Both the position numbers and the translations under genes were made by a program. From NCBI RefSeq assembly GCF_003018255.1, contig NZ_CP027440.1: DNA of 64,000 bases; one strand, given 5' to 3'. Source of the DNA: Escherichia coli (lineage in GTDB: Bacteria > Pseudomonadota > Gammaproteobacteria > Enterobacterales > Enterobacteriaceae). The notes under the pieces are model-generated. The model had not been told where the DNA came from and made no database searches. It saw only the letters and a list, made by a program, of their open reading frames with translations. Positions 13,242 to 20,445 of this stretch are shown one piece after another (positions within the stretch are counted from its first letter, which is position 1; each line of letters begins with the position of its first letter).

Positions 13242-14216
13242 ATGACAAAATTACAACTTAAGTACCGGGAGTTAAAAATTATCTCGGTAATCGCTGCCAG
13301 TGAAAATATCAGCCATGCCGCGACTGTACTTGGCATCGCACAGGCCAACGTCAGCAAATATCTTGCTGATTTTGAATCAAAAGTGGGTTTAAAAGTCTTT
13401 GACCGAACCACCCGACAGCTGATGCTCACACCTTTTGGCACCGTGCTGTTACCGTATATCAACGACATGCTGGACAGAAACGAGCAGCTTAATAATTTTA
13501 TTGCAGATTATAAGCATGAGAAACGTGGTCGGGTCACTATCTATGCACCAACCGGCATAATTACCTATTTATCCAAACATGTAATCGATAAAATTAAAGA
13601 TATCGGTGATATCACCTTATCGCTAAAAACCTGCAATCTTGAGCGTAATGCCTTTTATGAAGGCGTCGAATTTCCCGATGATTGTGATGTTTTAATCAGC
13701 TACGCCCAACCAAAAGATGAATCGCTGGTTGCCAGTTTTATTACCCAATATGCCGTAACCGCTTATGCCAGCCAGCGCTATCTTGAGAAACATCCCATTA
13801 GCCGTCCTGACGAACTCGAACATCACTCCTGTATTTTGATCGACTCGATGATGATCGACGACGCGAATATCTGGCGCTTCAACGTCGCCGGGAGTAAAGA
13901 GGTGCGGGATTATCGCGTGAAGGGAAATTACGTTTGCGACAACACGCAATCTGCGCTGGAGCTGGCACGAAATCACCTGGGGATTGTGTTTGCGCCAGAC
14001 AAAAGTGTGCAGAGCGACCTGCAAGACGGCACGCTGGTGCCCTGCTTTCAGCACCCGTATGAATGGTGGCTGGATCTGGTGGCTATCTTCCGTAAACGGG
14101 AATACCAGCCCTGGCGGGTCCAGTATGTGCTGGATGAAATGCTGCGTGAAATTCGCCACCAGCTTGCTCAGTCGCAGCAACTGCGGCCTGAACAAGCGGC
14201 GGAAAGCGAAGATTAA
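13242..14216 (+). CDS. yiaU: LysR-family transcriptional regulator
   Basis: 324 aa; N-terminal HTH (…[23 protein letters not shown]…) plus LysR substrate-binding region. Confidence 0.8.
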
Positions 14217-15349
14217 TGATCGAGATAAAGGTAATGCACCCAGCTGGTCATGCGTAACAGTACTTTGCGCATCACCGAGACATGGCTGAAATGATCAGAA
14301 TAGACCGCCACCTGGGCGTAAATACCGTCTGGTAATGCGCTCAAATCAGTATGCTCATCCAGTTCAATGGTCGCGATAACGCCATCTGAACCCGGCGCTG
14401 TGTTTAACGTCTGTAAGGTGCCGGTCGACTGATAAGCTCCACCGGGAACAGCTGGACTAATGGCTGCCAGCTTACCGCTGAACACTTTGCCTGGCAGAGC
14501 GTTAAATACCACTTCCGCATCATCGCCGGGAGCCAGGCGCAGCAAGGAGTTCTGACGGAACTGCGCCACGATTTGTCGTTTCTGATCGGGTATAAACACC
14601 ATCACCGGACGTAGCGGCAGCGACGCGGCATAGGTACCCGGACGAATCAGCACCTGGGTCACATAACCATCGCTCGGCGCACGCACTATCGTCTGCTCAA
14701 GGTTATATTTTGCTTCCGCGAGCTGCGCTTTCAGGCTGGCGATTTGAGAATGTTCACCCAACACCAGGCTATCCAGCTGGCTCTGGATCTGTTTTTGTTC
14801 CGCCGCCGCTGATTTTACGGAGGCTTCCTGCGCCAGATAATTTTGCCGCGCCACATCGATATCGCGTTCTGAAAACGGGTTTACTTTCGCCTGGCTGCCA
14901 CGTGCGTAACGCTGATACTCTTTAGCGAACTTATCCCGCGTGGCCTTTGCCTGCTGAGTATTCGCCGCCATCTCATCTAACTCTGCGCCCAACGCCCGCT
15001 GTTTATGTTCTGCGGTAACGATATCCGCCATCAGCCGATCCACCCGAGCCTGATAACGCGTCGGGTCCAGTCGAAATAGCACCTCACCTTTTTTAATCAG
15101 CGTATTTTTCTTGTCCGTCACTTCGATCACCACGCCTGTCACCTGTGGGACAACAGGAATAGAAATAACCGCTTTTTGCGCTTTAAAGGTATACGGATGG
15201 TTATAGTTCATTAACAGAATTAGACCGCTGACAATAAATATGCCTCCCAGGGCCGCTGTGGGAATGGTCCATTTATTTACAGGAATTTTGAAGATCTTAA
15301 ACATTGCCCATGCGAAAGCCACATAGGTTAAAATAATCAGTAAATCCAT
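14213..15349 (-). CDS. yiaV: HlyD-family membrane-fusion-like protein
   Basis: 378 aa; N-terminal TM, coiled-coil middle, beta-rich C-terminus; about 80% identical to the second copy at 30765..31901. Confidence 0.8.
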
Positions 15350-15354
15350 AAGTA

Positions 15355-15678
15355 TTACTCGGCAGAAGAGGATTTGATGTCAGCGAGCTGTTTCTCCAGC
15401 CCGGCAATACGCTGTTGTAGTTGCACAACGGAGGAGTCATGGTTTTGCATTCCCCATCCACGCTCCGGGCGGTAAAGCGTGGCCCAAATCCACAAAAATG
15501 GCCAGATAACATGTAACGTAAAAAGACTCACCCAACCAGCAACATGAATGGCGTCGGCATGAGGATGATTACGTTTTTTGGCAATCAGGTAGGGAACATC
15601 ATGTAAAATAATAATCCCATAGAATATCACCAGAAATACAAAAATAAGCACTCCCAATGCAAAATAATCCAGGAACAT
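15355..15678 (-). CDS. yiaW: DUF3302-type small inner-membrane protein
   Basis: Start placed at MFLDYF… by analogy with the paralog at 31904..32266 (MFLNYF…); ORF-track frame extends to 15708. Confidence 0.75.
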
Positions 15679-16108
15679 ATTTCCCTCAGAGAATATAGAA
15701 AAGAACAATTAACGCATATTATGAAATACCATAATGCGGTGCAATTTCCTTATTTATATAACGACATATTGTTTTTTATATACTTTCTGAAGTGTGCAGC
15801 CTGGCTTTTCAACAGTGCGAGGCTTATCATATTGAAATAATGGAACTATTGGCCAAACTAATGAATAACTCCAGTAAAACATCCACAGTACAGATTAAGC
15901 GTATTAAACCTTCAATTATCTACCGTTTATTGCTGATTGGCCTCGGAACGCCAATGGTGATTTATGGCCTGGTTCGCCCGCTCACCATCGAAACGCGAGA
16001 TTAAACTCCTGGCAAAACACGCCCCAGAAACGCACTTCTGTTGACGTAGTCTGGGTTATTGCGCACGTAGGTTTAAAACGTAAATTGTAACAACGTGCGC
16101 TTTGTTTA

Positions 16109-16192
16109 TGCCGGATGCGGCGTGTACGCCTTATCCGGCCTACGGTCAGGTCCCCGTAGGCATGATAAGACGCGTAAGCGTCGCATCAGGCA
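16109..16192. repeat. BIME (two inverted REP elements) downstream of aldB
   Basis: gccggatgcggcgtgtacgccttatccggcctac and the inverted copy cataagacgcgtaagcgtcgcatcaggc; canonical E. coli REP sequence. Confidence 0.6.
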
Positions 16193-16222
16193 ATGAATAC
16201 CCAATGCGACCAGCTTCTTATA

Positions 16223-17761
16223 TCAGAACAGCCCCAACGGTTTATCCGAGTAGCTCACCAGCAGGCACTTGGTTTGCTGGTAATGCTCAAGCATCATCTT
16301 GTGGGTTTCGCGTCCGATGCCCGACTGTTTGTAGCCACCAAACGCCGCATGTGCCGGGTAAGCGTGATAACAATTGGTCCACACGCGCCCTGCCTGTATG
16401 CCGCGCCCCATCTTATAGGCAAGATTACCGTTGCGGCTCCAGACGCCCGCGCCCAGGCCATATTGCGTATCGTTCGCCAGCTCCAGCGCTTCTTCCATCG
16501 TTTTGAAGGTGGTCACCGCCAGCACCGGGCCAAAAATCTCCTCCTGGAACACGCGCATATTGTTCTGACCAAACAAAATCGTCGGTTCGAGGTAGTAGCC
16601 GTCTTTCAGTTCACCTTCCAGCAGCTTGCGCCGCCCGCCAGTGAGCACGTCTGCGCCCTCTTTTTTACCGATATCAATGTAGTTGAGGATGGTTTCCAGT
16701 TGCCCGTGAGAAACCTGCGCCCCCATTTGCGTCACGCTGTCGAGCGGGTTACCGCTGCGAATGCTTTCGACACGGCGGATGGCGCGTTCCATAAAGCGTT
16801 CGTAGATAGACTCCTGCACTAAAGCACGGCTTGGACAGGTGCAAACTTCGCCCTGGTTAAAGGCAAACAGTGCAAAGCCTTCCAGCGCTTTATCGAAAAA
16901 GGCATCTTCTTCATCCATTACGTCAGCAAAGAAGATATTTGGCGATTTGCCACCCAGCTCCAGCGTCACCGGAATAATGTTTTGCGTGGCGTATTGCATA
17001 ATTTGTTGGCCCACTTCCGTTGAGCCGGTAAACGCCACTTTGGCGATGCGTTTCGAGGTCGCCAGATATTCGCCAATTTCCCCACCTGCGCCGTTGACCA
17101 CGTTCACCACGCCCGGCGGCAGTAAATCACCGACGATTTCCATTAGCAGCAGTACAGAAAGCGGGGTAAGACGTGCGGGTTTCAGCACCACACAGTTGCC
17201 CGCCGCCAGCGCGGGAGCCATTTTCCAGCTCGCCATCAGCAGCGGGAAGTTCCACGGAATAATCTGCCCCACCACGCCTAACGGCTCATGGAAATGATAG
17301 GCCACGGTTTCGCTATCAACTTCACTGATCCCACCTTCCTGCGCCCGAATACACGAGGCAAAATAGCGAAAATGATCAATCGCCAGCGGCACATCAGCAG
17401 CACTGGTTTCGCGAATGGGTTTGCCGTTATCCCAGGTTTCAGCGGTCGCTAACAGTTCAAGGTTTTGTTCCATTCGATCGGCAATCTTAAACAGAATCGC
17501 CGCACGATCCTGCACCGAGGTGTGCGCCCATTTATCTTTCACTTTGTGCGCAGCATCCAGCGCCAGATCGATGTCTCGTTTGCCCGAAGACGCCACTTCG
17601 CACAGCAGCTGCCCGGTCACCGGCGTCAGGTTCTGGTAATACTCGCCATCGGCAGGCGCTACCCATTCGCCACCGATAAAGTTGTCGTAGCGGGCTTTTA
17701 ATTTGAGGGGGAAACCATACTCGCCGGGCTTAATCTGTGCTGAAGGGGGATTATTGGTCAT
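16223..17761 (-). CDS. aldB: NADP-dependent aldehyde dehydrogenase B
   Basis: 512 aa from [17 protein letters not shown]… (GGAGACG RBS); ALDH-family sequence. The ORF-track frame extends 30 codons further upstream. Confidence 0.9.
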
Positions 17762-17868
17762 GATCGTCTCCTTGCGGTGTGAGGTATAACAAGGGTAGAC
17801 GTGACTGGCGAAATCTTCGCCAGTCGGTAACAGCTTTACGACGGCTATCACGAATTTACGGGCAAAAG

Positions 17869-19164
17869 CTACAGCGGGTAGTGTGCGACGTACACGGCTT
17901 GCTGGTTATTAATTCTTTTCTCTTGCGCGAATCCTTCTTTAACAATTGTCCGTAAATCAGCTCGAGCCGTATTATCAGAGACGCCCAAGCTCGCGCTAAT
18001 TTCAGCAACTGTGTACTCTTTCCCCGGATTGGCGAGCATCACATTCAGGAGCGTTACCTGGCGCGGATTCAGGCGTTTAAGCACACCAGAGCTAAACAGC
18101 ACACTATCGAGTTTTGCGCTTCGTTGTGTAATTTCATCGATATGCTGCTGCCAGTTTTGCAGAGCACGTTTAATGACACCCGCCTGATATTCAAGGAAAT
18201 AAGTCAGATCCATACCATCTGATTCAGTGTACTGGTAGCTGGCGGCATATTTGACCGGTGCAGCATGAAGCAAACGGCTGATGGAAATATATTTAAAGAC
18301 ATCGTAGCCCGATTTCAGCATATACCAGTAAAACAGCGCCCGACTGGTGCGCCCGTTGCCATCGCGAAACGGATGTTCATGGGCCAGCATAAAATGCAGA
18401 ATGCAGGCACGGACCAACGGATGAATATACCCTTCATGGCTGTTTAACCACTGGCAAACTTTTTCCAGCCGTTCCGGTAACAATGCCGCAGCGGGCGGTT
18501 GATGCACTATATTGCCATCATAGTCGGCGATCACAACATCATCTGTTTCACGAAATTCTCCCGGACGATATTTCGCGTCATTGATTCCACCCATACCAAT
18601 GGCATGTAACTGGCGAATAAGCGCAGGTGTCAGCGGTTCTGCGAGTAAGTGCGGAATTTCCGCCATCAGCCGGGCATTTCCCGCAATCATATGCTCGTCT
18701 TCAGTGCGTGGCGACCGCCCTGTTTCCAGCATTTTTCTCGCCACCAGCGTTGTAGTATTCGCACCTTCCAGTTGGGAACTGGTGATCGGCTCTTCCAGGC
18801 GTAACTGACTTAACTCGGCGCCCGCCCCGCGTAACCGTTCAGTCTGATCTTTCAGCGCCAGTGCAGTGGCATGTTTATCAACAAGCTCGCACGCTTCTGC
18901 AATCACCGGCGTAATGTTGAATCCGGCCTGTTCACCCGCTTCATTGCAATAATTAATTCGTTGGATCGCCGCGTTGCGCGCCAGACGGGTAAGCGTCCAC
19001 GCCACATCGACGTTTTCTCCTTTTTTGATGCGGTACTGCAGCTCATCAAAAGGCAGATAACGTCCTTTTTCATCGGTAACCCGGTTAAAGCGCAGGTGGG
19101 CCAGGAGTTCCTCACCCGATAAGTGTGATAAAGGAATAAGTCCGGGAGGTGATTTGATAGCCAT
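17869..19164 (-). CDS. Fic-domain protein (class II, with C-terminal winged-helix-like region)
   Basis: 431 aa; canonical Fic motif [14 protein letters not shown]; candidate inhibitory motif SSQLEG (S/TxxxEG/N) N-terminal to it; about 110 aa of C-terminal extension. Confidence 0.8.
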
Positions 19165-19169
19165 GTGCT

Positions 19170-19248
19170 TATCTCAAAAAAGCGCAATATTGAGATAGTG
19201 TATAGCAGGAAAGAGAAACTATCTCAAAAATCGCAAATTTTGAGATAG
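19170..19248. promoter_or_regulatory. Two tandem palindromes (arms CTATCTCAA/TTGAGATAG, 12-bp spacer, about 49 bp apart) immediately upstream of the Fic gene
   Basis: tatctcaaaaaagcgcaatattgagata at about 19170..19198 and ctatctcaaaaatcgcaaattttgagatag at about 19219..19248; the first begins 6 bp from the Fic start codon. Confidence 0.5.
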
Positions 19249-19251
19249 TTT

Positions 19252-19278
19252 AAAAAATGGCTGACAATTAGACAGCCA
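19252..19278 (-). terminator. Putative rho-independent terminator of yiaY
   Basis: Near-perfect 21-bp palindrome tggctgacaattagacagcca just past the yiaY stop, followed on the minus strand by a T6 run (plus-strand aaaaaa at about 19252..19257). Confidence 0.5.
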
Positions 19279-19293
19279 TTGTGGGAATGATGA

Positions 19294-20445
19294 TTACATC
19301 GCTGCGCGATAAATCGCCATAATTTCTTCGTGAGTTGCCTGAATCGGGTTAGTAAACCCACACGCATCTTTCAGGGCATTGGTTGCCAGCACTGGAATAT
19401 CTTCTTCTTTCACGTTCAGGTCACGCAGGCCTGCCGGGATATTCACTTTCTTCGCCAGTTCACGGATGGCATTGATGCACGCTTCTGCGCCTTCCGCGTC
19501 ATTTTTGCCTGTCACGTTAACGCCCATGGCAGCAGCACAGTCACGCAGACGCGCAGCAGCGACTTTGCTGTTGAACACCTGAACGTGTGGCAGCAGAACG
19601 GCATTACATACACCATGTGGCAGGTTGTAGAAACCGCCCAGTTGGTGCGCCATCGCATGAACATAACCAAGAGATGCGTTGTTGAATGCCATGCCAGCGA
19701 GGAACTGGGCATAAGCCATTGCTTCACGCGCTTTAGCATTGCTGCCATCTTCAACGGCTAACGGCAGGTTTTCGGCAATCATGGTCACGGCTTTCAGTGC
19801 GCAAGCGTCAGTGATCGGCGTGGCGGCAATAGAAACATACGCTTCGATAGCGTGCGTTAAGGCATCCATACCCGTTGCGGCGGTCAGTGACTTCGGCATA
19901 CCGACCATCAGAGATGAGTCATTGACAGAAAGCAACGGAGTTACATGTTTATCAACAATCGCCATTTTGATATGACGCGCTTCGTCAGTGATGATGCAGA
20001 AACGGGTCATTTCAGAGGCCGTACCCGCCGTGGTATTGATGGCGATCATCGGCAGCTGCGGTTTTGCAGAGCGGTCAACGCCTTCGTAATCGCGAATATC
20101 GCCGCCATTGGCTGCCACCAGCGCAATACCTTTTGCGCAGTCGTGCGGAGAACCACCGCCTAAGGAGATCACGCTATCGCAATTATTTTCTTTAAGTAAT
20201 TTTAAACCTTCGGCGACGTTTTCCGTGGTGGGGTTAGGTTGGGTGCCATCATAAATAACGCTAAAAATATTGCGTTCTTCCAGTGCTTTTTGCACATCAC
20301 CCGCCATACCCAATTTCGTTAACATGTTGTCGGTGACAATTAAGGTACGGGTAAATCCATAATCTGCCATCATATTCATTGCATCATTCAATGAATCAGC
20401 ACCAATAACATTCACGGAAGGAATAAAAAAGGTTGAAGCTGCCAT
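19294..20445 (-). CDS. yiaY: Iron-containing (group III) alcohol dehydrogenase
   Basis: 383 aa, Fe-ADH family sequence; position between aldB and selB. Confidence 0.85.

Follow-up and report, generated by a model that had tools for sequence, protein, structure and literature searches.

What kind of protein is encoded between aldB and yiaY in a 64-kb stretch of Escherichia coli contig NZ_CP027440.1 (hereafter the window), how might it be controlled, and how did the gene come to be missing from K-12? An initial annotation, made from the sequence alone, had pointed to a 431-amino-acid (431-aa) Fic protein of class II, encoded by what looked like a single-gene insertion. We find that the protein combines a Fic domain with a C-terminal winged helix-turn-helix (wHTH), that two operator-like palindromes stand upstream of its gene, and that the state of K-12 is best read as a deletion scar. 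With moderate confidence, we consider the whole best explained as an autorepressed, autoinhibited, stand-alone class II Fic AMPylase acting on a bacterial target, and this AMP-transferase is probably also a deAMPylase.

An intact Fic core with an inhibitory motif in the same chain

A profile search matched the Pfam family Fic/DOC (PF02661) at aa 177 to 281 with E = 1.7e-19, far beyond chance. The catalytic motif of Fic/Fido enzymes, HxFx(D/E)GN(G/K)RxxR, is present at aa 264 to 275, intact as the initial annotation had read it. In an alignment of 33 family sequences, H264, P265, F266, D268, G269, N270, G271, R272, and R275 are invariant, and catalytic motifs recur in all 71 family proteins of a wider motif survey that drew on species-representative genomes and earlier loci.

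The proposed autoinhibitory sequence SSQLEG lies at aa 129 to 134 (nt 18763–18780), 130 residues ahead of the catalytic histidine. The run S129-S130-Q131-L132-E133-G134-A135 is invariant in 33 of 33 aligned sequences, and all 71 surveyed proteins carry either SSQLEG[AS] or SAQLEGA at this place. In an AlphaFold2 model, a helix spanning aa 116 to 132 stops exactly at E133-G134, and in a phmmer comparison against the sequences of the PDB, the inhibitory E-G of FICD fell opposite E133-G134 and the catalytic loops paired residue for residue. In class II Fic proteins, (S/T)xxxE(G/N) sits in the same polypeptide on a helix that precedes the Fic core (Engel et al. 2012), and this is the arrangement found here. 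Because the motif stands N-terminal to the core in cis, is invariant across the family, falls at a helix end, and aligns with the E-G of FICD, the alignments and the model together place the 431-aa protein in class II; the possibility that the match lay outside an inhibitory helix did not hold up. E133 is the putative inhibitory and deAMPylation glutamate and, by homology with E73 of SoFic and E234 of FICD, would obstruct productive ATP binding at the site of the ATP gamma-phosphate.

The notion of a decaying or catalytically dead Fic-like remnant can be set aside with near certainty, given a gene that is full length in 1,572 of 1,575 carrier genomes, invariant catalytic and inhibitory residues, and a ratio of nonsynonymous to synonymous substitution rates (dN/dS) of 0.02–0.07. 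Three profile-based identities were also rejected, namely the NCBIfam entry “mobile mystery protein B,” Doc, and VbhT, all of which gave marginal scores far under their cut-offs.

A C-terminal winged helix-turn-helix

The AlphaFold2 model, built on the 33-sequence alignment, had a mean predicted local distance difference test score (pLDDT) of 89 and a predicted template modeling score of 0.84. It orders the chain as a domain at aa 1 to 85, helices within aa 86 to 111, the helix at aa 116 to 132, the Fic core, a 39-residue helix at aa 321 to 359, and a winged HTH at aa 361 to 427. The last two elements thus account for the additional domain of some 110 aa that the initial annotation had noted at the C-terminus. 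Within the winged HTH, the model shows helices at aa 367–378, 386–393, and 397–409 (the recognition helix), followed by a beta-hairpin at aa 413–427, and the recognition-helix residues S396, N398, T399, and A400 are conserved in the family alignment. Several Pfam HTH families match aa 361 to 414, all weakly. HTH_DeoR matches 14 of the 33 family members at E ≤ 0.001; at this threshold SoFic-like_C (PF21248) matches 4, and at E ≤ 0.1 it matches 13.

Foldseek searches of the PDB aligned the model over about 350 columns with the SoFic structures 3ZCN, 3EQX, and 3ZEC at TM scores of 0.69–0.73 and 17–18% identity. Further whole-chain matches were CbFic2 (8CIL), CccR (7XUX), Dde_2494 (4RGL), and the Mycobacterium marinum FIC protein 7CB8. 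A winged HTH that follows the Fic domain toward the C-terminus is the hallmark of Fic-wHTH proteins, and on the modeled fold this protein belongs to the architecture of SoFic, CccR, and CbFic2. The helix at aa 86 to 113 appears, by its position, to match the N-terminal dimerization helix described for SoFic (bioRxiv 10.64898/2026.07.09.737422).

Two candidate operators around a putative promoter

Two features that the initial annotation had not remarked on are the palindromes upstream of the gene and an N-terminal domain of about 85 aa. The palindromes, which we term O1 (proximal) and O2 (distal), are both perfect inverted repeats of the form TATCTCAA-N12-TTGAGATA (Table 1). They are the sole sites of this form in the 64-kb window at up to three mismatches, with 0.16 expected. 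In CFT073, Escherichia albertii, a Salmonella copy on an integrative and conjugative element (ICE), and Pseudescherichia, the arms are kept and the spacers varied, with the left arms at about −33 and −83; the Salmonella and Pseudescherichia proteins share 70% and 77% aa identity with the window protein. A Klebsiella prophage copy, at 49% identity, has the proximal repeat only.

Across the 71 species-level loci, the strict core CTCAA-N12-TTGAG occurs 15–45 nt before the start codon in 23 and a second copy 60–100 nt before it in 11, against a background of one match in the remaining 555 kb of these loci. The matching loci include Alteromonadales, Marinomonas, Pseudomonas, and the cyanobacterium Leptolyngbya, and the O1–O2 distance is 50–51 bp in every dual-operator locus. 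Variant palindromes occupy the same place in other members, for example AACTCAA-N10/12-TTGAGTT in Campylobacterota. A number of Pseudomonas members (L030, L032, L033, L040–L043, L053, L054, L057, L058, and L064) have a different, well-conserved layout about 110 nt upstream of the gene, ...CCTACA..T(A/T)TTTCAGAA..CTC(T/C)GATATTGAG...GCTGTACTC...TTTTGAGAC; it takes the place of both N12 palindromes and may represent a divergent form of the operators.

Between the palindromes we read a putative sigma-70 promoter, whose −35 sits inside the promoter-proximal arm of O2 and whose −10 comes shortly before O1; in homologues, the putative −10 position is occupied by TATACT or TATAAC. From this position and its conservation, a promoter between O1 and O2 is a reasonable prediction, and the two palindromes, conserved across phyla, would then flank or overlap it as CccR-type inverted repeats do over their own −35/−10. 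Autorepression is the natural reading of the dual operators, because the precedents CccR and SoFic both bind DNA upstream of their own genes; binding by the window protein is predicted on this analogy. The half-site centers are 20 bp apart, which by our calculation would set two recognition helices about 68 Å from each other.

Three further searches bear on the palindromes. In the 71 proteins, co-variation between recognition helix and operator half-site gave no clean pattern beyond an N-T-A conserved along with the CTCAA core. A scan of IMG/VR viral contigs for TATCTCAA-N12-TTGAGATA returned 15 matches, about the chance number by a rough estimate, and none beside a Fic relative; these matches are uninformative about carriage by phages. 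An RNA hairpin formed by O1 in the 5′ untranslated region was considered as a riboregulator and rejected, as its folding energy (−9 kcal/mol, z = −1.67) was like that of shuffled sequences.

Table 1. Coordinates of the Fic-wHTH gene, its parts, and adjoining features in the window
Feature	Position	Strand	Basis or remark
Fic-wHTH gene, 431 aa	17869..19164	-	Open reading frame (ORF) with ATG start; uninterrupted 431 codons
C-terminal module: 39-residue helix (aa 321–359), then winged HTH (aa 361–427)	17884..18204	-	AlphaFold2, Foldseek
Fic core (Pfam aa 177–281)	18322..18636	-	Catalytic motif aa 264–275 = nt 18340–18375
Inhibitory helix aa 116–134, ending in SSQLEG	18763..18819	-	Motif, alignment, AlphaFold2 model
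Helix aa 86–113, ahead of inhibitory helix	18826..18909	-	AlphaFold2 secondary structure
Family-specific N-terminal domain, aa 1–85	18910..19164	-	Three helices and a beta-hairpin
Proximal candidate operator O1, TATCTCAA-N12-TTGAGATA	19170..19197		Perfect inverted repeat; 6–33 nt 5′ of ATG
Putative sigma-70 promoter	19199..19227	-	Read from sequence: −35 TTGAGA 19222–19227, 17-nt spacer, −10 TATACA 19199–19204
Distal candidate operator O2, TATCTCAA-N12-TTGAGATA	19220..19247		Perfect inverted repeat; 50 bp upstream of O1
yiaY terminator hairpin (ATGGCTG...CAGCCAT and T-run)	19252..19280	-	Directly abuts O2; also in the K-12 empty site
Segment absent from K-12, 1376 bp	17866..19241		BLAST of the K-12 locus against the window; junction sequences

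An N-terminal domain marks this branch

The first 85 residues lie outside the part of the chain that can be aligned with SoFic. Modeled alone, they gave a pLDDT of 92, and Y36, R45, W56, and R63 are invariant. A profile of aa 1 to 115 gathered 898 clusters at 50% identity. In the best 150 matches listed, the region always fell at the N-terminus or close to it, and the full-length proteins were of Fic-wHTH size and bore variants of the Fic motif; a search of this profile for other architectures found, among the matches listed, just the same Fic-wHTH proteins and fragments. Because the matches sit at the N-termini of Fic-wHTH-sized proteins, the domain is a signature of this Fic-wHTH branch. Structure comparison of its helix-helix-helix-hairpin arrangement returned no significant structural relative, and the fold could not be assigned.

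Relationship to characterized Fic proteins

“SoFic” was reportedly described by Millman et al. in 2022 as a single-gene anti-phage system. The SoFic of Shewanella oneidensis (SO_4266, MloA; 3EQX and 3ZCN) is the best whole-chain structural match to the window protein (TM 0.72), and the likeness extends to a class II Fic core, an N-terminal inhibitory helix with a preceding helix, a C-terminal wHTH, and a single gene. The PADLOC SoFic profile PDLC03963 matches aa 96 to 427 over profile positions 30–351 of 361 (E = 1.1e-43). By contrast, the NCBIfam SoFic equivalog NF046030 scores 39.3 bits against a cut-off of 550 and covers aa 205 to 306 only, which does not mark an SoFic orthologue, and the window protein has some 60–70 extra N-terminal residues that form a separate domain. 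The PDB entry 9vjc, which we take to be the E. coli protein EcSofic because the aligned catalytic histidine falls at residue 194, is matched by phmmer at E = 1e-7 over 98 residues only. Judged by these scores, the window protein belongs to a distant branch of paralogues and is no orthologue of SoFic. SoFic has been described as a constitutive deAMPylase and dimer-dependent AMPylase of EF-Tu that needs E73 for deAMPylation and, as a dimer, binds specifically to the 100 bp that precede its own start codon (bioRxiv 10.64898/2026.07.09.737422). EcSofic, from E. coli H397, protects against phage T5 and is toxic when expressed, and an AS1 antitoxin gene of about 47 aa lies 3′ of it (PMC12249575); this Sofic-AS1 pair has no counterpart at the locus studied here.

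CccR of Yersinia pseudotuberculosis (YPK_0951; 7XUX) likewise joins a Fic domain to a C-terminal HTH. It is a dimeric autorepressor that acts at inverted repeats over its own −35/−10, and its Fic toxicity works through AMPylation of FtsZ (PMC9755527). It shares 18% identity with the window protein in the Foldseek alignment, with a sequence match confined to part of the Fic domain (aa 122–289), and lacks an equivalent of the N-terminal domain. The CccR operator is a single pair, AGATAATCAT-N26-ATGATAATCT, whereas here two palindromes with N12 spacers lie 50 bp apart; CccR is also linked to a type VI secretion system (T6SS) as well as being secreted, whereas no T6SS genes adjoin the window gene.

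CbFic2 of Coxiella burnetii (CBU_0822; 8CIL) is the top Foldseek match by E-value (7.4e-12). This bifunctional Fic protein with a C-terminal HTH switches between AMPylation and deAMPylation through DNA binding and dimerization; it was studied in host cells and AMPylates histone H3, and the portion of the source considered here makes no mention of a sequence-specific operator (PMC10628234). The window family differs in having a conserved cognate operator and in occurring mostly in non-pathogens.

Two comparisons are more remote. Human FICD (HYPE) is the best PDB match by sequence (E = 2.7e-12), with the inhibitory and catalytic residues aligned as above, but it is a eukaryotic enzyme of the endoplasmic reticulum with a TPR domain, no wHTH, and BiP as its target. 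The class I systems FicT/FicA and VbhT/VbhA resemble the window protein in that a Fic toxin is held off by an inhibitory glutamate, and class I FicT proteins target GyrB and ParE. There, the inhibitory helix comes from a separate antitoxin gene, whereas here it is in cis and no small gene is adjacent.

The kind of protein, a Fic-wHTH, is therefore already known: RefSeq labels the gene product “Fic family protein” (e.g., WP_001562279.1), and the PADLOC SoFic model matches it. New are an N-terminal domain specific to this branch, a dual operator that spans phyla and has N12 spacers and 50-bp phasing, and the recognition of the K-12 state as a deletion scar.

The gene was lost from K-12-like lineages

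The initial annotation took aldB and yiaY to be adjacent in K-12 and the gene to be an apparent insertion between them. In K-12 MG1655, the two genes are indeed adjacent, with a 164-bp spacer and no Fic gene; the single-gene difference from K-12 stood, and the insertion did not. The K-12 junction reads ...CGGGCAAGGG-TTACAG-AGATAGTT-GAAAAAGCGGCT, where TTACAG is the counterpart of the final codon and stop that end the Fic ORF (CTACAG in the window) and AGATAGTT is the outer half of O2. A second empty allele, in E. coli 19AR0646 (L014), has the same left junction, TTACAG followed by AGATA, and keeps the entire O2 as TCTCTCAA-N12-TTGAGAGA. The arms of this O2 (L014 1670–1730) have changed symmetrically, from TATCTCAA to TCTCTCAA and from TTGAGATA to TTGAGAGA, and the palindrome is perfect though the gene is gone.

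In E. albertii NBRC 107761, the gene directly adjoins aldB, with 96% aa identity and 92.8% nucleotide identity over Fic and aldB. Synonymous divergence (dS) is 0.30 to E. albertii (dN/dS 0.06) and 0.05–0.07 within E. coli, where allelic identity is 97–99%. This divergence is of the order expected under vertical inheritance, a comparison in which core genes did not serve as the yardstick. Given the ORF and operator remnants in empty sites and the E. albertii gene beside aldB, we therefore read the polymorphism, from these comparisons, as a deletion of an ancestral gene in K-12-like lineages. The remnants, and the left breakpoint that the two scars have in common, are consistent with one deletion and then a second, nested one, and not with insertion into a naive site.

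The contrary view, that a single gene was recently inserted into the aldB-yiaY spacer of a K-12-like locus, is very improbable. It can draw on the absence from K-12, on an ORF GC content (about 0.48–0.55) slightly under that of the flanks, and on related genes carried by mobile elements in other genera. It is opposed by the retained last codon, stop, and operator half-sites with their shared breakpoint, by the occupied junction in E. albertii, and by divergence of a vertical order both within E. coli and between the species; moreover, the borders of the 1376-bp segment in the window have no target-site duplications, integrase, or insertion sequence (IS) elements. Descent looks vertical and under purifying selection, and at the aldB-yiaY junction, the cassette of O2, promoter, O1, and ORF constitutes an old accessory gene of Escherichia.

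Among 5,426 complete E. coli genomes, 1,575 (~29%) carry the gene, in single copy and on the chromosome, so the gene is far from universal in the species; carriers include CFT073, O157:H7, avian (including avian pathogenic), and ST131-type isolates. A K-12-like empty junction was found in 3,355 genomes (~62%), and the remainder include an IS200C in the empty site and the second empty allele of 19AR0646. The window allele is rare, with at least 99% identity in 2 of the 1,575 carriers and 95–99% in the others; an identical copy is annotated in E. coli JNE23-011 from Japan (100%), and the source strain is probably from an uncommon lineage.

A few alleles stand apart. E. coli 366_BP0076 (L012 5340–5798) is an empty-site strain except for an IS200C transposase gene between aldB and yiaY, which makes the junction an IS target as well. 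In E. coli DETEC-P836 (NZ_CP116103.1), matches to the gene fall at two separate places, the better of which covers 68%, and this suggests a disrupted copy. Over the 400 nt of yiaY closest to the indel (19294–19700), identity is only about 90% when the window is compared with K-12 (L001 4677–5080) and 96.5–100% when it is compared with Fic-positive CFT073; the rest of yiaY and aldB is at 95–99%. This pattern looks like two old haplotypes tied to the presence or absence of the Fic cassette, or like an import by recombination.

Locus, partner genes, and genomic context

The start codon of the Fic gene is backed by the N-terminus M-x-I-K-x-P-P, kept across the 33 homologues down to 40% identity. 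Its flanking genes aldB (16223–17761) and yiaY (19294–20445) are on the same strand, and the neighborhood in the window comprises yiaUVW, aldB, yiaY, and selBA. Between the Fic stop and the aldB start, at 17804–17826, lies an inverted repeat with 10-bp arms, GACTGGCGAA-ATC-TTCGCCAGTC; because K-12 has it too, we count it as part of the region upstream of aldB, outside the cassette. The far side of aldB (~13250–16200) is variable as well: the window and K-12 have yiaU-yiaV-yiaW, CFT073 (L002) has sgb/lyx sugar genes directly adjoining aldB, and KE21 (L013) has a major facilitator superfamily transporter gene and a frameshifted GH127 gene. By these gene orders, aldB is flanked by two plastic junctions.

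The absence of an antitoxin-like partner, noted initially, was borne out. Small ORFs between the Fic stop and the aldB start all overlap the Fic or aldB genes, and no neighbor, upstream or downstream, is conserved across the genera examined. We conclude that there is no partner gene because, in addition, the indel ends 3 nt past the Fic stop and leaves 107 nt to the aldB start.

Homologues occur in mobile and in chromosomal settings. The Salmonella copy lies in the ICE about 3 kb from an IetAS defense system, with an autotransporter gene in between. That system (L004 1–3033), upstream of the Fic homologue, comprises an AAA ATPase and an S8 peptidase that matches PADLOC IetS (E = 1e-50), and the genes of this locus adjoin the ICE conjugation genes AcaB, DUF3158, DUF2859, and TrwB-like. 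The Klebsiella copy lies in its prophage between a primase gene and tail genes. In E. coli, Pseudescherichia, Pseudomonas syringae, Rahnella, and Xenorhabdus, the neighbors are housekeeping genes, and PADLOC models had no matches among the neighbors at the Klebsiella, Pectobacterium, and Xenorhabdus loci. A tblastn search of phage genome records found distant relatives only, at 36% identity or less and none covering 80% of the query, and 19 of 72,556 plasmid records matched, nearly all of them non-mobilizable. The family is mainly chromosomal and is not a common phage gene in the phage collection searched.

Two of these loci have further features. In Xenorhabdus khoisanae (L100 7001–10216), two Fic-HTH genes lie less than 2 kb apart with a PRiA4_ORF3-domain gene between them; one encodes a 454-aa family member and the other, convergent, a 336-aa Fic plus HTH protein. 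The P. syringae homologue (L095–L097 8466–9614) adjoins an iron-containing alcohol dehydrogenase gene of the yiaY family, probably by coincidence because the two are convergent.

Proposed mechanism and biological role

We propose that a Fic-wHTH dimer binds the two operators through its C-terminal winged HTH. With O2 covering the −35 and O1 lying between the −10 and the start codon, the protein would thereby repress its own promoter. In the enzyme, occlusion of the ATP site by Glu133 of SSQLEG would keep AMPylation low, and the same residue may support deAMPylation, as E73 does in SoFic. Relief of this inhibition would lead to AMPylation of an abundant or essential bacterial protein and to growth arrest; relatives offer EF-Tu (SoFic), FtsZ (CccR), and GyrB/ParE (class I FicT) as precedents for the target.

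What the cell gains from such an enzyme is a more tentative matter. Our leading suggestion, put forward with less than even confidence, is a single-gene, toxin-like module for abortive infection or defense. An anti-phage role is suggested because the PADLOC SoFic profile matches, EcSofic protects against T5, and homologues are found about 3 kb from IetAS on the Salmonella ICE and in a Klebsiella prophage. A more specific form of this idea, which we think unlikely, is a so far undescribed type of DNA-gated abortive-infection switch: a dimer or tetramer would be parked on the in-phase operators in a deAMPylating “off” state, and release from the operators, or a phage cue sensed by the N-terminal domain, would trigger AMPylation of a translation or division factor. 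If that were true, the paired operators would take part allosterically in the control of the toxin, beyond their place in the promoter.

Several observations weigh against this picture of a self-repressing defense toxin. DNA binding, AMPylation, toxicity, and phage defense are all properties that we infer for the window protein, and its similarity to the tested SoFic proteins is remote (phmmer E of about 1e-6 to 1e-7). A consensus promoter scan made no call at the proposed promoter, whose −10, TATACA, is weak and has no T at position 6. Most homologues are lone among housekeeping genes and not in defense islands. The gene has been retained since the split of E. coli and E. albertii under strong purifying selection; such long retention is unusual for fast-turnover defense genes and fits a physiological regulator equally well. 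From gene order only, c4409 is probably the Fic gene of CFT073, an unconfirmed identity that we assume here. A c4409::Km mutant of CFT073 had no host-protein AMPylation phenotype (PMC9558369), a result that counts only against a secreted virulence role.

A physiological regulator is accordingly the strongest competitor to a defense role, if a less probable one. Here, a bifunctional AMPylase/deAMPylase would tune an endogenous target such as EF-Tu under stress and serve besides as a transcription factor of its own gene and perhaps of others. SoFic, which modifies EF-Tu in both directions and binds its own promoter, provides the precedent, and the long vertical retention at one site, with the low dN/dS and a dS of 0.30 to E. 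albertii, and homologues that are mostly lone among metabolic genes are in keeping with it. However, the gene is dispensable, as about 62% of complete E. coli genomes, K-12 among them, lack it; no further operator site in the 64-kb window gives a sign of a regulon there; and the copies on an ICE and in a prophage are typical of selfish or defense cargo.

We give very little credence to a secreted effector, whether CccR-like (T6SS-delivered and interbacterial) or CbFic2-like (acting in a host nucleus), in which the Fic domain would be toxic or modify chromatin proteins and the wHTH would act as a transcription factor. The domain plan does equal that of CccR and CbFic2, and the gene occurs in the pathogenic lineages CFT073 and O157:H7 and in an avian pathogenic strain, but neither in the window nor in CFT073 do secretion-system genes, T6SS included, stand beside it, and family members occur across cyanobacteria and free-living bacteria from the sea and soil. 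Host-protein AMPylation by CFT073 was not significant either, and its putative AMPylator mutants, among them c4409::Km with the identity by gene order assumed above, showed no consistent targets (PMC9558369).

Significance

Fic-wHTH proteins have recently been given targets and roles, with SoFic linked to EF-Tu, CccR to FtsZ, CbFic2 to histone H3, and “SoFic” to phage defense. The locus described here represents a large, uncharacterized branch of these proteins: at least 589 pattern-matched stretches from species-representative genomes encode a relative. It also offers a compact system in E. coli itself, composed of the 1376-bp indel and the outer 6 nt of O2 that K-12 has kept, with operators of defined sequence, E133G and H264A as obvious point mutants, and natural gene-free hosts that include K-12. 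More generally, a gene missing from K-12 need not be an insertion elsewhere, and in this case the scars point to its loss from K-12.

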